From: a virus
Taxonomy: Duplodnaviria; Caudoviricetes
Reading direction: 5' to 3' (one strand)
Length of the DNA stretch: 64,000 nt
Virus record (IMG/VR): IMGVR_UViG_3300010262_000137
Coordinates: 22,155 to 86,154 of that record
Both the position numbers and the translations under genes were made by a program. The notes under the pieces are model-generated. The model worked only from the letters and a program-made list of their open reading frames with translations, did no database searches and was not told the origin of the DNA. This document shows positions 27,448 through 32,854 of this stretch, piece after piece (the first letter of the stretch is position 1; each line of letters opens with the position of its first letter).

Positions 27448-27779
27448 TGAATGAAGCAAAGATAATCAATATGAACAAAGGAGCAAAGATTGACTATGAA
27501 ATTATGGGAAATAAAATTATTTTCAATGACGAATTAATGTTGAATCTTGCTAAGTATGAGCGTGATGACCCTATGCATATTGATATATGCATGGATGAGT
27601 TTGGGTGTTTGTGTATGGGATTGGCTAACAATTATATTGCACAAATTGATATTCCTGCTCGTGAATATGAGTTTGTTGAAGATGGTGTGGATGAAGAAGG
27701 AAAAACTAAATATAACAAGGTAGCAATTCCATTTGATATTAAAAAAGTAGTCATTACATTATGGGAGGTTGAAGAATAA
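27447..27779 (+). CDS. Tail protein, hypothetical
   Basis: Overlapping stop/start with both neighbours. Confidence 0.6.
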   Translation: MNEAKIINMNKGAKIDYEIMGNKIIFNDELMLNLAKYERDDPMHIDICMDEFGCLCMGLANNYIAQIDIPAREYEFVEDGVDEEGKTKYNKVAIPFDIKKVVITLWEVEE

Positions 27780-28858
27780 TGGAAACAAATTTTGATGCGA
27801 TCAAATTAGCAGTAGAAGCAGCTACTGGTGGAAAAAATACAGTATTATTTGATGATTTAGGTAATCCTTCAATCATGGTTAGAATTCCTAAATTTAAAAT
27901 TTCAGATGTAATCGCTGGTGGATCTAATTCTGTTCATCCTGCGTTTATTGTAAATGGTGTAGAAAAAGATGAAATATTCATAAGTAAATATCAAAATATC
28001 GTAGTAAATGATCGAGCTTATTCTTTACCGATGCAAGATCCAAAAGCTTATATTGATTTTGATACAGCAAAAAAAGCCTGTGAAAACAAAGGTAAGGGTT
28101 GGCATCTAATGACAAACGCAGAATGGGCTGCAATTGCTTTATGGTGTAAAAAGAATGATTACTTCCCAAGAGGTAACAACAATTACGGAAGTGATGTATC
28201 TTACCCTCATGAAAAGGGTGTAGAAACATATAACTATGACGGTAAAACTGGTAGAGTTGCTTCGGGTTCTGGGCCAGTTACATGGGCTCATGATGGTAGC
28301 AACTCAGGTATATTCGATTTAAATGGTAATGTTTGGGAATGGGTTGGAGGACTTCGTTTAGTTGATGGTGAAATCCAAGTCATCGCCGATAATAATGCAG
28401 CAAATGGTGCAGATATGACAGTGAATTCTAGTCATTGGAAAGCCATTGATAAGAGTGGAAACTTAGTTGCTCCAAAATCAGCTAATACATTAAAGTTTGA
28501 TTATACAGTAGATCCAGGTACTACAAATGTAGGAAAAGGAGTTCCAAAATTAGTAACAACTTTAACTCATCAACAAACAAGTGATGAACCATATGCAGCA
28601 GGACAATTTGAAGATATGACGGCAGATGATGGTATCACTCCACCAGAAATATTAAAGTCGTTAGCGATTTATCCTGAGGGAACAAAAGCAAATCATGGAG
28701 ATTACATCTATATGAGAAATAAGGGAGAGCGTTTGCCTTTTCGTGGTGGCCTTTGGCATAACGGAAGCACTGCAGGCGTGTTCGCTTTGAATTTGCACAA
28801 CCCACGCTCTTATGCTGACTATGATAGGGGTTTTCGCTCCGCTTTCGTAGGTCTGTAA
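27779..28858 (+). CDS. DGR target: Mtd-like receptor-binding protein with FGE-sulfatase/C-type-lectin fold
   Basis: WHLMTNAEW, GIFDLNGNVWEWV, C-terminal VR RGG..W...N.R....GFRS; last gene of the tail module. Confidence 0.9.
   Translation: METNFDAIKLAVEAATGGKNTVLFDDLGNPSIMVRIPKFKISDVIAGGSNSVHPAFIVNGVEKDEIFISKYQNIVVNDRAYSLPMQDPKAYIDFDTAKKACENKGKGWHLMTNAEWAAIALWCKKNDYFPRGNNNYGSDVSYPHEKGVETYNYDGKTGRVASGSGPVTWAHDGSNSGIFDLNGNVWEWVGGLRLVDGEIQVIADNNAANGADMTVNSSHWKAIDKSGNLVAPKSANTLKFDYTVDPGTTNVGKGVPKLVTTLTHQQTSDEPYAAGQFEDMTADDGITPPEILKSLAIYPEGTKANHGDYIYMRNKGERLPFRGGLWHNGSTAGVFALNLHNPRSYADYDRGFRSAFVGL
28733..28843 (+). repeat. DGR variable repeat (VR)
   Basis: 111 nt colinear with three downstream template units; encodes LPFRGGLWHNGSTAGVFALNLHNPRSYADYDRGFRSA. 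Confidence 0.95.
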
Positions 28859-28880
28859 TTTTGGCTTCAGTGTTCGGTTT

Positions 28881-28898
28881 TTGCCACGTGAGTGGCAA
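28881..28898. other. DGR target hairpin/cruciform downstream of VR
   Basis: TTGCCAC-GTGA-GTGGCAA, perfect 7-bp stem and 4-nt loop, 23 nt after the target stop; such hairpins are established DGR target-recognition elements. Confidence 0.75.
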
Positions 28899-28902
28899 TC
28901 AT

Positions 28903-28940
28903 TCCCACCAGCGATTTAGCTGGTGGGATTATTTTTTTAT
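28903..28940 (+). terminator. Intrinsic terminator ending the tail operon
   Basis: TCCCACCAGC-GATTTA-GCTGGTGGGA 10-bp stem followed by TTATTTTTTT. Confidence 0.85.
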
Positions 28941-28967
28941 TGTGTAAATTTTTACACATGATATAAT
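28940..28967 (+). promoter_or_regulatory. Promoter with overlapping palindromic operator for avd-TR-RT
   Basis: Extended -10 TGaTATAAT (28959-28967); perfect dyad TGTGTAAA-TT-TTTACACA (28941-28958) over the -35/spacer. Confidence 0.65.
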
Positions 28968-28982
28968 TTACTTGAGGTGGTA

Positions 28983-29486
28983 ATGATGGATAGTCAATTA
29001 GGATTGTATGAGACTCAGCTTGTCATACAGCAGGAGGTTTATGATATGTTACTATATGCCTATCCGTTGTTAGATCATTTTCCAAAGAGTCAAAAATTCT
29101 CTTTAGTTCAAGATATCAAAAGAAGTATGGATTTAGTTCTTAAATATGCAATTACTGCTAATAAAAAATACAGCAAGACTACAACGCTTGAAAAAATGGA
29201 TGTAGAACTAGCTGCTTTAAAGGTTTATATAAGATTAGCATTTGAATTGCATTTTTTTAAAGGCGAAAAGCACTATATGGAAATGTCTCGAAGATTAGAT
29301 AAAGTCGGCAAGATGTTAGGTGGCTGGATTAAGGCTGAAAAAGAAAAATCAGGGAATAAAGCTATTGAAAAAACATATGTTTGCGAGAAATGCGGTGCAA
29401 AAATAACTCCTAAATCTTATGAATATTCAATAAGGAATTTTGGTAAATCTCTTTGTTATGCATGTCAAAAAAGTCATAAGGATTAG
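28983..29486 (+). CDS. avd: Avd (accessory variability determinant) fused to a C-terminal Zn finger
   Basis: FPKSQKFSLVQDIK...LEKMDVEL..LK..IRLA...VGKMLGGWIK four-helix pattern; tail CEKCGAKI...YS..NFGKSLCYACQK. Confidence 0.9.
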   Translation: MMDSQLGLYETQLVIQQEVYDMLLYAYPLLDHFPKSQKFSLVQDIKRSMDLVLKYAITANKKYSKTTTLEKMDVELAALKVYIRLAFELHFFKGEKHYMEMSRRLDKVGKMLGGWIKAEKEKSGNKAIEKTYVCEKCGAKITPKSYEYSIRNFGKSLCYACQKSHKD

Positions 29487-29500
29487 ATGAATAGTGAGAA

Positions 29501-29567
29501 CTTTTCGTGTTGGCGTTGGATTCTGTACGCTTTGGCTCTGCTCTCCGAGAGGTTTTCGCTCCGCTCT
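29501..29567 (+). repeat. Degenerate, internally deleted template unit U0
   Basis: Keeps CTTTTCGTG(T)TGGC, ACGC and GGTTTTCGCTCCGCTCT; lacks the central GCAGGCGTGTTCG block. Confidence 0.75.
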
Positions 29568-29604
29568 ATTCTTTTATGCTATTTTGGGATTAGGCTATTA
29601 GCGT

Positions 29605-29715
29605 TTGCCTTTTCGTGGTGGCTCTTTCAATAATTCTAGCAATGCAGGCGTGTTCGCTTTGAATTTGAACAACCCACGCTCCAACACTTGGAACAATCTA
29701 GGTTTTCGCTCCGCT
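29605..29715 (+). repeat. Template unit U1
   Basis: 111 nt colinear with VR; 9 AAY codons; reads LPFRGGSFNNSSNAGVFALNLNNPRSNTWNNLGFRSA. Confidence 0.93.
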
Positions 29716-29743
29716 TTATCCTTATGGGATTAGACTATTATGA

Positions 29744-29854
29744 AGACCTTTTCGTGGTGGCGCTTTTTGGGAGCATTCGAATGCAGGCGTGTTCGAATTG
29801 AATCTGAATAACCCACGCTCTTATGCTGACAATGATAGAGGTTTTCGCTCCGCT
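29744..29854 (+). repeat. Template unit U2
   Basis: 111 nt colinear with VR; 5 AAY codons; reads RPFRGGAFWEHSNAGVFELNLNNPRSYADNDRGFRSA. Confidence 0.93.
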
Positions 29855-29892
29855 CTAACCCAATAAAGAGTAATGGGATTGGACTATATGAA

Positions 29893-30003
29893 TTGCCTTT
29901 TCGTGGTGGCAATTGGAATAACGGAAGCAATGCAGGCGTGTTCGCTGTAAACTTGAATAACCCACGCTCCAATTCCAATCACAATGTAGGTTTTCGCTCC
30001 GCT
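29893..30003 (+). repeat. Template unit U3 (canonical RT-proximal TR)
   Basis: 111 nt colinear with VR; 10 AAY codons; reads LPFRGGNWNNGSNAGVFAVNLNNPRSNSNHNVGFRSA; followed by a 163-nt spacer to the RT start. Confidence 0.95.
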
Positions 30004-30166
30004 CTGCTCTTGCAATTAGGTATATGATGGATACGTCTGTCATTTCAAATCAAGGGAATAAAGGAGTCTAATTCCATGCTGAACAAGCAAAAAAATATAT
30101 AAAGATGAAAACCGATTGTAATGTTAAATGAACTCCGTTAAGCATCTTAAAAATTAGGTGATGATC

Positions 30167-31321
30167 ATGGCGAAAATAAAGAATGTATATGACTATATCG
30201 TTAGTGATGAAAACATATACAATGCTTATTTGAACGCTCGCAAAAGCAAAAGATATAGAAAAGATGTACTCATATTTACTCAAAATCTATAAGCAAATCT
30301 AGTTAAGATTCAAAATGAATTAAGAAGCGAAGTTGTTGATTATCCTAAATATAGAGAGTTCTATATTTACGAACCAAAGTGTCGCTTGATTCTTGCTCAA
30401 GACTTTCCTGAAGTGATAAAACAGTGGGCGTTTTATCAAGTTTTAAGTCCTATGTTTACTAGGATGTACATCAAGGATTCTTATGCATGCATTAAAGGAA
30501 AAGGACAAATTGCAGCAATTAAAAGGCTTCATTATTGGCTTAAATTGGTCAATAGCAAAAGATACAATAAACTGAAAAACGGTTTAGATGTATCTGATTT
30601 AAACAAGTGGTATTACTTGAAAATAGACTTTAGCAAATACTTTTATAGAGTAGATCATAAAGTCATGATTGATGCATTGAAGAAGAAAATTAAAGATGAT
30701 CGTGTTGTTAGATGGCTTGAAACACGCATAGAAAGCCCTGATATGCCTTTTGGATTACCTAAAGGCATGCGTCCTGAAGATGTTGAAATGAGTGAACGTT
30801 TATATGATAAAGGAATGCCAGTAGGCGCTTTGGTTTCACAAATGTTAGCGAATGTTTACAATGATCAGATAGATCAATATGCTAAAAGGACATTAGGAAT
30901 TAAGTATTATATACGCTATCAGGATGATATTGTGGTGCTTTGCGATGATAAGAAACAAATAAAAGAATGGCATCATAAACTAGAGAAGTTCGCAAATGAT
31001 GTCATGAAAATGGAAATGAACCAAAAGACCTGTATTAGACCAATCAATCAAGGGATAGAATTTTGTGGTTTTCGCTTATGGGCTACACATATTAAAATAA
31101 GGAAAAGCACTTCCTTGAGAATTAAAAGGAACTTAAAAGGCGTGATGAAACGATACAATGAAGGAGATTGTACTTTAGAACACGCTACGCAAGTAGTTAA
31201 TTCATATTTTGGACTGCTGAAACATTGTAATAGTTATGCATTAAAAACTGAAATATTTGGTGATTATGAAAAAGGAATAGATGGTTGGTTTGTACTGACT
31301 AGAAATCAAGGTAACGATTAA
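30167..31321 (+). pseudogene. DGR reverse transcriptase with in-frame nonsense codon (TAA 30290-30292, codon 42)
   Basis: ATG 30167 with RBS AGGTG is in frame with ORF 30386-31321; ENIYNAYLNARKSK...QNL*ANL; LKIDFSKYF, GMPVGALVSQ, RYQDD, IEFCGF. Confidence 0.88.
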
Positions 31322-31411
31322 TTTCGTTACCTTTTAATTATGTTTTAAAGTTCTTTATTTTTCGACTTTATTTATTTTATATAAAATGTGCGATGAAAGG
31401 AGGAATATATA

Positions 31412-31786
31412 ATGGATATTTCAAAAACAACATCATTACTATTATTATTAATCGTTTTTGCAGTGTTGATTCAATTTATCGTTGAACGCTTAAAAGCAGT
31501 CTTAGGTAATAAGGTAATGAAGTATCTACCAGCGGATGTATTGGCTGCATTATTAGGTATTTTGTTTGCATTTATGTTTAGCATTGATGTATTCAAATAC
31601 TTTGATTTGAATGGAACAATTCCATATGTTGGCAATATTATTTCAGGTTTGATTATTTCAGCTGGAGCACCTGCTATTCATGAGTTTATTGCTAATATTC
31701 GTGAACAAAGAAAGTTACTACAAGATTCTATCTCTACTGGAGCGGTAGAACCATTAAAAAAAGTAGGAGGTAAAGAAAATGAATGA
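31412..31786 (+). CDS. Holin (putative)
   Basis: Three hydrophobic segments, charged C-terminus, upstream of the endolysin. Confidence 0.7.
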   Translation: MDISKTTSLLLLLIVFAVLIQFIVERLKAVLGNKVMKYLPADVLAALLGILFAFMFSIDVFKYFDLNGTIPYVGNIISGLIISAGAPAIHEFIANIREQRKLLQDSISTGAVEPLKKVGGKENE

Positions 31787-31871
31787 AGATGTAAAAGATA
31801 TTGTAATTACTTCAGAAATGGAAGAAGAACTTAACACTATGGGAAAAGGTGAAGAAGGAAGTGATGAATAA
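31779..31871 (+). CDS. 30-aa acidic micro-ORF between holin and endolysin
   Basis: RBS AGGAGG; MNEDVKDIVITSEMEEELNTMGKGEEGSDE*; TAATG coupling to the endolysin. Confidence 0.55.
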   Translation: MNEDVKDIVITSEMEEELNTMGKGEEGSDE

Positions 31872-32854
31872 TGGATTGGAAAAACTTAAATGCCGATGTC
31901 AATAAAATCATGAATAAACACTATACTAAGGGGCGTTCAGGACGAAAAATTGATAAAATAATCATCCATTATAACGCAGGTGATTTAACTGCAGAAGGAT
32001 GTTATTCTGTATGGCAAAACAGAGCAGCTTCGGCACACTATCAAGTTGAATCTTCAGGTCGTATTGGACAATTGGTTTGGGATGGTGATACAGCATGGCA
32101 TGCTGGCAACTGGGATGCCAACTGTTCAAGTATCGGAATTGAACATGCAAATAAAGCAGGTGGATATATTAGTGAAGCATGCTTAGATGCAGGAGCTCAT
32201 TTAGTTGCAGCATTATGTAAGTATTATGGATTGGGACGTCCTAAATGGAAGGTAAATGTATTCCCTCATAATCATTTTGCAGCTACATCTTGTCCTGGTC
32301 GATTACAGGATGAGCAAAGAGATGCTTATATGCATAAAGCTCAACAATGGTATGATCAAATGGTGAATGGGGTTGAAACTCCATCTAAACCAAGCGAACC
32401 ATCTACAGGTAAAAAAACTAATGAGGAAGTAGCAAAAGAGGTTATTGCTGGCAAATGGGGTAATGGAAATGAACGTAAGAGCAGTTTGACAAGTGCTGGA
32501 TACGATTATAATGTTATTCAATCGTTAGTAAATCAAATGTTAGGAATTCCAACGTCTGATCCAAAACCAACAAAAACTATTGATCAGTTAGCGGATGAAG
32601 TTATTGCTGGCAAATGGGGTAATGGTGAAGAACGTAAAAATCGTTTAACCAAAGCAGGATACAATTATGATGCAGTTCAAGCGAAAGTTAATCAAAAATT
32701 ACATGGAGTAAACAGTAACAAGTCCAATGAAACAATCGCTAGAGAAGTTATTGCTGGCAAATGGGGTAATGGAGCTGAACGTAAGAACCGATTAACAGCT
32801 GCAGGATATAACTATGATGCCATACAAAGTATTGTGAATAGTTTGTGTAAATAA
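31871..32854 (+). CDS. Endolysin: Amidase_2 domain plus three Cpl-7 (CW_7) cell-wall-binding repeats
   Basis: IIIHYNAG, ASAHYQV, AWHAG, SIGIEH, TSCPG; three EVIAGKWGNG.ERK..L..AGY repeats. Confidence 0.92.
   Translation: MDWKNLNADVNKIMNKHYTKGRSGRKIDKIIIHYNAGDLTAEGCYSVWQNRAASAHYQVESSGRIGQLVWDGDTAWHAGNWDANCSSIGIEHANKAGGYISEACLDAGAHLVAALCKYYGLGRPKWKVNVFPHNHFAATSCPGRLQDEQRDAYMHKAQQWYDQMVNGVETPSKPSEPSTGKKTNEEVAKEVIAGKWGNGNERKSSLTSAGYDYNVIQSLVNQMLGIPTSDPKPTKTIDQLADEVIAGKWGNGEERKNRLTKAGYNYDAVQAKVNQKLHGVNSNKSNETIAREVIAGKWGNGAERKNRLTAAGYNYDAIQSIVNSLCK

Follow-up and report, generated by a model that had tools for sequence, protein, structure and literature searches.

A diversity-generating retroelement of a Holdemanella prophage with a likely tandem bank of alternative templates for one variable repeat

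We analysed a 64,000-nucleotide stretch of DNA (the window) from an 86-kb IMG/VR virus record. It contains a diversity-generating retroelement (DGR) of the BPP-1 type, carried by a prophage of the human-gut bacterium Holdemanella, in the order target gene with variable repeat (VR), avd, template, spacer (Sp) and reverse transcriptase (RT). The neighbourhood is the tail module of a tailed phage, with genes for baseplate J, a gp48-like product and a 359-residue FGE-sulfatase/C-type-lectin-like protein. The last of these is the target gene, an open reading frame downstream of the other two (27779–28858; this and all other features below are on the plus strand). It is followed by a terminator, the Avd gene, the repeats, a 163-nt spacer, the RT, a holin-like gene and the gene of an amidase/CW_7 endolysin. 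The target protein matches Pfam family PF03781 (FGE-sulfatase/C-type-lectin-like domain) with an E-value of 1.7e-08, and its residues 303–357 match phrog_2889 and a tail-protein PHROG. The core of the VR (28736–28843), measured from the first to the last of four blocks that it shares with the template units, comprises codons 320–355 of the 359-codon gene and ends four codons before the stop. Judged by the PF03781 match, the VR appears to occupy the 3′ end of a gene for a protein of the C-type-lectin/FGE fold, as is characteristic of DGRs.

DGRs require a GC-rich hairpin or cruciform with a 4-nt loop, located a few to 34 bp after the VR (PMC3240598). A 7-bp inverted repeat with a 4-nt loop at 28881–28898, which starts 37 nt past block 4 and 22 nt past the stop codon, is a candidate for this element and would provide the post-VR hairpin of a BPP-1-type DGR. 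Its stem is invariant across all relatives examined below, and its loop varies (GTGA, GTAA or GCTA), deviating at position 2 from the published GRNA consensus. The target gene ends in an intrinsic terminator (28903–28938) with a 10-bp stem, 7 GC pairs and a subsequent T run. Immediately downstream, a promoter-like site recognized by eye (28940–28967; TTGTGT, 16 nt, TG-n-TATAAT with an extended −10) may drive avd, the array and the RT; its −35 hexamer fits at three of six positions only, and it was unlisted by the promoter scan.

The avd reading frame (28977–29486) has 169 codons, with a likely start at ATG 28983 or 28986. Residues 15–120 of its product match PF22296 (bAvd, E = 1.9e-26), and the protein also matches phrog_3206, annotated as Avd protein of DGR (E = 4e-34), and the BPP-1 Avd structure 4dwl (E = 0.007). 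A C-terminal extension of about 50 residues (29337–29486, residues ∼121–169) contains a CxxC...CxxC arrangement, with weak matches to zinc fingers (phrog_13782). The RT gene (30167–31321) is identified by RVT_1 (E = 4.7e-15) and phrog_1423 and contains an in-frame TAA at 30290–30292. The best PDB match of an intact homologue (from locus L010) is the BPP-1 bRT, 8ub7 (E = 5e-39), with group II intron RTs reaching only 4e-09. The terminator scan placed one terminator-like hairpin where the RT gene ends (31308–31333) and none inside the array. The lysis module 3′ of the RT (31412–32854) encodes a 124-residue membrane (holin-like) protein and an Amidase_2 endolysin with three CW_7 repeats.

The template region comprises three tandem units of 108 nt each, U1 (29608–29715; 23 A, 9 AAY codons), U2 (29747–29854; 21 A, 5 AAY codons) and U3 (29896–30003; 27 A, 10 AAY codons). 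The last adjoins the spacer, which by sequence comparison extends over the 163 nt from 30004 to 30166. Exact searches located the four blocks at 29608, 29641, 29671 and 29701 in U1, at 29747, 29780, 29810 and 29840 in U2, at 29896, 29929, 29959 and 29989 in U3, and at 28736, 28772, 28799 and 28829 in the VR. These searches agree with the original prediction of three repeats spaced 139 and 149 nt apart with four common blocks and a long spacer after U3 only. The units are gapless against the VR and open over its 36 core codons, so that they are colinear and stop-free in the VR frame as had been proposed; they also differ at many non-A positions, with 11–16 single-donor non-A differences from the VR. 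Each has the hallmarks of a template, with 5–10 AAY codons and 0–1 codons that mutagenesis of A could turn into a stop. The five copies of block 4 cannot be due to chance, since in 64 kb any one 15-mer should turn up about 1e-4 times. The array was missed by Tandem Repeats Finder because the units are too divergent.

The fifth copy of block 4 belongs to a fourth unit, U0 (29503–29565), which was absent from the original prediction and was found by exact block search and alignment. U0 is degenerate and internally deleted, with block 4 intact, and the true avd 3′ end (29478–29502) lies immediately before it. It is full length in the related loci L010/L060 and L009. In L010/L060 the full-length U0 is A-poor and has no AAY codon; in L010 (3073–3180) it contains 11 A and degenerate inner blocks and looks like an old acceptor of mutagenised cDNA, not a template.

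Upstream of each of the three complete units lies a leader of some 25 nt, similar to the true avd 3′ end and containing a conserved 13-nt motif. The leader of U1 spans 29583–29607 (motif GGGATTRGRCTAT at 29586–29598), that of U2 29722–29746 (motif at 29726–29738) and that of U3 29871–29895 (motif at 29875–29887). U1 matches the VR 8 nt further upstream (28728–28735) and 2 nt further downstream than U2 and U3 do. The linker between U2 and U3 contains, by eye, a short partial copy (29862–29874) of spacer positions 54–69, the stretch before and into the leader-binding site described below, which hints that the duplications took in part of the spacer. Neither the phage record nor three host genomes contained a further VR-like copy; thus, the extra units do not serve remote targets.

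Relatives of the locus were retrieved via the RT from five IMG/VR contigs, three bacterial genomes (Eubacterium sp. TM05-53, Holdemanella sp. MSK.7.32 and a Holdemanella MAG) and three human-gut metagenome contigs. A blastn search of the locus against a phage collection gave no match, and a sample of Erysipelotrichaceae genomes yielded only three further, distant RT matches, without arrays. A scan of IMG/VR with the block 4 pattern returned arrays from this clade only, and the other contigs with two matches are ordinary VR and template repeat (TR) pairs.

The VR of the window does not derive from any one unit. Single-donor fits leave 16 (U1), 16 (U2) and 11 (U3) non-A mismatches, and a mosaic with segment 1 from U3, segment 2 from U1 and segment 3 from U2 leaves none, with seven differences that all fall at donor adenines (four in segment 1, one in segment 2 and two in segment 3). 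The share of U1 is defined by about four informative sites, and a two-donor path costs only two non-A mismatches. Donors were assigned at 10 loci by dynamic programming of each VR against its units, with a penalty for switching. This gave 70 mismatches at donor adenines against one elsewhere, with 0–2 switches per VR. The direction of transfer is asymmetric: under a high switch penalty the VRs leave 0–2 non-A mismatches, and units treated as targets leave 7–25. For example, the VR of L006 is derived from U3 with eight A and no non-A differences, and the reverse requires none and eight, respectively. The TR/VR differences are therefore confined to template adenines, as in a BPP-1-type DGR.

Eight independent relatives, drawn from isolate prophages and from gut metagenome contigs, have VRs that are either whole copies of U1, U2 or U3 or mixtures of units. 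The VR corresponds to whole U1 in L010/L060 (seven differences) and to whole U2 in L065 (eight differences), in each case with every difference at an A of the unit, and to whole U3 in L006. The VR of the isolate genome L061 is U3|U3|U2, and that of L063 is U2|U1|U1+U2 with one non-A mismatch. L062, a MAG with a two-unit array that may be partly a product of assembly, has U1|U1|U3, with segment 1 equal to U1 and no A changed. L009, from a phage with 77% RT identity and four full units, has Uc|Ud|Ud. Lineage-specific variants of a phage's own units recur in its VR segments, and the number of columns that vary between phages is 15 for U2, 10 for U3 and 50 for the VR.

Judged by these alignments, the single VR has drawn on each of the cassettes as donor, with changes at template adenines only. 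The view that U1–U3 are usable donors is borne out by the VRs copied from whole U1, U2 and U3 as well as by the mosaics, and U1 and U2 are not merely mutagenised U3, since each donates to VRs with differences at A sites only. The opposite outcome envisaged at the outset, relatives that carry U3 only with U1 and U2 in decay, was not encountered: close relatives keep all three, and only U0 decays. We therefore consider it very likely that the element is a DGR whose template is a tandem bank, made up of three alternative cassettes and a fourth in decay. Each cassette is a complete in-frame, AAY-rich version of the VR with its own leader derived from the end of avd, and the cassettes would be shuffled into a single VR, so that the tail-fibre tip would vary by this shuffling on top of adenine mutagenesis.

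The most serious competing explanation accepts the units as real templates, with the RT copying one unit per event, and attributes the mosaics to homologous recombination or gene conversion at the DNA level, between VR and array or within the array. All crossovers but one lie within stretches of 11–21 nt common to both donors (the exception, in L063, has no shared stretch), and the blocks thus offer identity for such exchange, yet they are short for exchange of the RecA type. Two assemblies contain junctions that could reflect it. In the IMG/VR contig L008 (2600–2713) the 5′ flank of the target gene is joined directly to U1, with the VR, avd and U0 missing, which is either a real deletion by VR/U1 recombination or an assembly collapse. 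L062 (4080–4336) has only two units. The first is a hybrid, with segments 1–2 of U1 and with segment 3 and the linker of U2, such as unequal crossing-over at block 3, or again a collapse, could produce. DNA-level exchange may therefore occur, and the unchanged U1 segment in the L062 VR also fits it, but both loci are metagenome assemblies. Against this explanation, all mosaic segments but one carry A-site changes of their own relative to the donor, which argues that each donor passed through the RT; the transferred segments bear adenine-specific changes, and RT and Avd are encoded in the locus, unlike what recombination without reverse transcription would leave. Ordinary DNA recombination may contribute to the exchange, but since almost every mosaic segment has its own A-site changes it is not the whole story, and we regard it as an unlikely source of the mosaics.

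A second alternative, that U3 alone is the working TR and that the other units (U1, U2 and U0) have no part as donors, being dead duplicates or fossils of the VR, would account for the full spacer being present after U3 only, for the decay of U0 and its A-poor, used-VR-like composition where it is full length, and for the overwriting of the U1 slot in L064 and L006, as would befall a target. It is very improbable, given that the VRs of L010/L060 and L065 are whole U1 and U2 that differ at adenines of the unit only, with the reverse derivation failing, and that U1 and U2 keep 5–9 AAY codons conserved across phages. Least probable of all is an artefact of assembly, in which reads of the VR were combined with those of the units, or co-existing VR variants with one another. 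Metagenome contigs do make up most of the loci, and L008 and L062 look collapsed, but usual assembly words exceed the shared blocks (at most 21 nt) in length, the segments of the VR are not unit reads because they depart from the units at A sites, and the same pattern is seen in genomes of cultured isolates (L060, L061) and in independent studies.

Within the reading of a cassette bank, two routes to a mosaic VR can be envisaged. Information transfer in BPP-1 has a fixed 3′ end within the IMH, and for integration at the 5′ end homology of 8 bp or more is enough; internal cryptic sites can serve as well, possibly through template switching (PMC3240598). By the first route, successive rounds of 3′-anchored partial retrohoming from different units would each overwrite the VR from block 4 to an internal block. 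By the second, the RT would jump between identical blocks of different units within one cDNA. We favour successive partial retrohoming, to which we give about an even chance, over jumping by the RT, which is possible but distinctly less probable.

Some of the units were in turn overwritten by A-mutagenised versions of an adjacent unit. The U1 slot of L064, with U1's own flanks kept, holds a copy of U2 with eight changes, all at U2 adenines. Segment 1 of U1 in L006 is U2-like with four A-only changes, and segments 2–3 of Ua in L009 correspond to Ub with three A-only changes. U3 of L062 has an AA>CT change, and contigs of one public run (X7) carry a full-length mosaic unit in the U0 slot. The rewriting of the U1 slot in L064 and L006, together with these other changes, indicates that the TR is not strictly invariant here. 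Instead of one invariant TR per VR family, the element has three used units and U0, with a U1 slot that has been rewritten. The additional flank shared by U1 and the VR may explain why U1 is the slot most often overwritten. Among the polymorphic columns of U3, A alleles account for 7 of 10; this enrichment is not significant, and we claim no general self-mutagenesis of U3.

The spacer RNA offers a candidate means of choosing among the units. The first ∼80 nt of the spacer are nearly invariant, even in L009. The predicted fold includes an 8-bp stem capped by a UACG tetraloop (30024–30043) inside a longer stem at the 5′ end of the spacer. By analogy with Sp 3–33 of BPP-1, where a tetraloop-capped stem at the spacer 5′ end binds Avd (bioRxiv 10.1101/2023.10.23.563531), this is a candidate Avd-binding stem-loop. 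Synthesis of cDNA in BPP-1 requires 20 nt of avd that lie upstream of the TR (PMC6182149); in the cryo-EM structure they form an 11-bp duplex with spacer positions 59–70 that adjoins the template:primer duplex, and upstream:downstream duplexes with a mean of 13 bp have been predicted in 207 DGRs (bioRxiv 10.1101/2023.10.23.563531). Here, Sp 62–74 (30065–30077) is complementary to every leader and, by fold and duplex energies, is a candidate counterpart of the avd:Sp ‘cPRT Stop’ duplex of BPP-1. The leader of U3 is predicted to pair with it as a 13-bp duplex in both the MFE and the centroid fold. Predicted duplex energies are −17.6 (U1), −19.1 (U2) and −18.2 (U3) kcal/mol, compared to a mean of −10.75 (sd 2.9) for random 25-mers of the window, 5% of which reach −16 kcal/mol; the leaders thus rank only in about the best 2–5% of random 25-mers. 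The fold of the whole RNA is no better than that of shuffles (z −0.7), and a search for a template:primer duplex between Sp 50–61 and the 3′ ends of the units gave nothing convincing for any unit. The outgroup, whose RT is 42% identical, also has a predicted duplex at this Sp position, in which two double changes are compensatory and one change is G-U.

A leader copy before each cassette implies that each would keep the upstream element that BPP-1 needs, with all of them competing for one spacer. Pairing between leader and spacer is thus a plausible selector of the unit to be copied, with moderate support from the predicted duplexes and the analogy to BPP-1. We propose that avd, the array, the spacer and the RT would be expressed as one transcript, that RT and Avd would assemble on the single spacer, and that the cassette copied may depend on which leader pairs with 30065–30077, together with the identical 3′ block. 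A more comprehensive model would then be a two-layer diversifier, with a self-renewing cassette bank, choice by leader:spacer pairing, block-by-block shuffling and rewriting of the bank by the RT. We advance this model tentatively, as it falls a little short of an even chance.

The copy in the window has probably come to rest. The TAA at 30290–30292 is codon 42 of its RT and corresponds to GAA (Glu) in L006, L010 and L009, where the RT is intact with 382–387 residues. As a result of this GAA>TAA nonsense change, the window DGR is probably inactive and its state frozen, and the freezing would be recent, because the window VR has no non-A difference from its donors. A sequencing error at this codon is possible. 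In the nearest outgroup (L083/L084) a single TR lies 621 nt from a single VR, which argues that the array is derived within the clade of Holdemanella phages. The outgroup resembles the present element in its homologous target protein, Avd and RT, in the same type of 3′ block and in the leader:spacer duplex at the same position. It differs in its single TR and VR and in its Avd (L083, 2594–2929), which has 111 residues and no Zn-ribbon tail. The tail thus co-occurs with the multi-template array in one comparison only, that with the L083 Avd.

Compared with the BPP-1 DGR, the order is the same (mtd VR, avd, TR, spacer and brt), the accessory protein is of the bAvd type and bRT is the nearest solved relative of the RT. 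Both have the VR at the 3′ end of the gene for a lectin-fold tail protein, adenine-specific transfer and a hairpin with a 4-nt loop after the VR. The tetraloop-capped 5′ stem of the spacer and the duplex between the avd 3′ end and the spacer are predicted features here. Unlike BPP-1, with its one invariant TR, the present element has three or four non-identical alternative TRs in tandem, each with an avd-end leader, a VR assembled from pieces of these TRs, occasional rewriting of TR units and an Avd with the added Zn-ribbon tail.

The original prediction regarded several templates for one VR as a reversal of known multi-target DGRs and knew of no description of it. More than one TR per RT is on record: a MAG survey counted 53 DGRs with at least two TRs (PMC11661182), Stenotrophomonas sp. 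SKA14 has two TRs and six VRs (PMC6642488), and the zeta crAss-like phages Lera/ct1yV3 have TR1–3 (PMC12386605). These systems share the presence of several TRs with ours, but each TR has its own VR(s) or the case is merely counted, without tandem alternative TRs for one VR, mosaic VRs or TR-to-TR transfer (PMC11661182, PMC6642488, PMC12386605). Non-A mismatches are reported for the TR2/TR3 pairs of Lera (PMC12386605) and might hide the same arrangement. The large DGR surveys (PMC5758913, PMC8144416) do not discuss such arrays. The claim of novelty has to be narrowed accordingly. In the literature searched, which left out most subscription papers and does not prove absence, we found neither mosaic VRs nor TR-to-TR transfer described, nor tandem TRs that act as alternatives for one VR.

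In the way it works, and in that only, the element resembles systems of silent-cassette gene conversion. Borrelia vlsE/vls, Neisseria pilE/pilS and the chicken immunoglobulin pseudo-V genes each place an untranslated in-frame bank beside one expressed mosaic site. Crossovers in these systems fall in conserved blocks between variable segments, and transfer is by DNA recombination. The likeness is limited to the cassette bank, the single mosaic expressed site and the crossovers in conserved blocks; the adenine signature of the RT and the presence of RT and Avd genes in the locus set the present element apart, and it belongs to none of those families.

DGRs are taken to vary only the adenine-templated positions of one invariant TR, and a bank of alternative TRs lifts that limit. 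Residues beyond the reach of adenine mutagenesis alone become variable, and a combinatorial layer is added, comparable to cassette conversion with hypermutation in the variation systems of vertebrates and pathogens. If the two-layer model is true, diversity would be the product of combinatorial choice and adenine mutagenesis, with non-adenine positions variable as well. The arrangement bears on template choice and exit by RT–Avd, on the site of integration of the cDNA 5′ end and on what keeps a TR invariant, and it offers a natural system with built-in markers for these mechanistic questions, as well as a design idea for engineered DGR mutagenesis. Pipelines for DGR detection assume one TR per VR, and would discard such loci or mis-score them as having non-A mismatches.

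Further traces of this element are found in public sequence data. Contigs from an RNA library (X18) span portions of the array and spacer, but they include the target gene as well and are no demonstration of transcription. The contig set of one public run (X3) contains a VR with a U3-like 3′ part. Contigs from bovine, canine and other animal gut metagenomes hold about one third of the sampled words of 28300–30200, indicating that relatives of the Holdemanella phage DGR are not confined to human samples.
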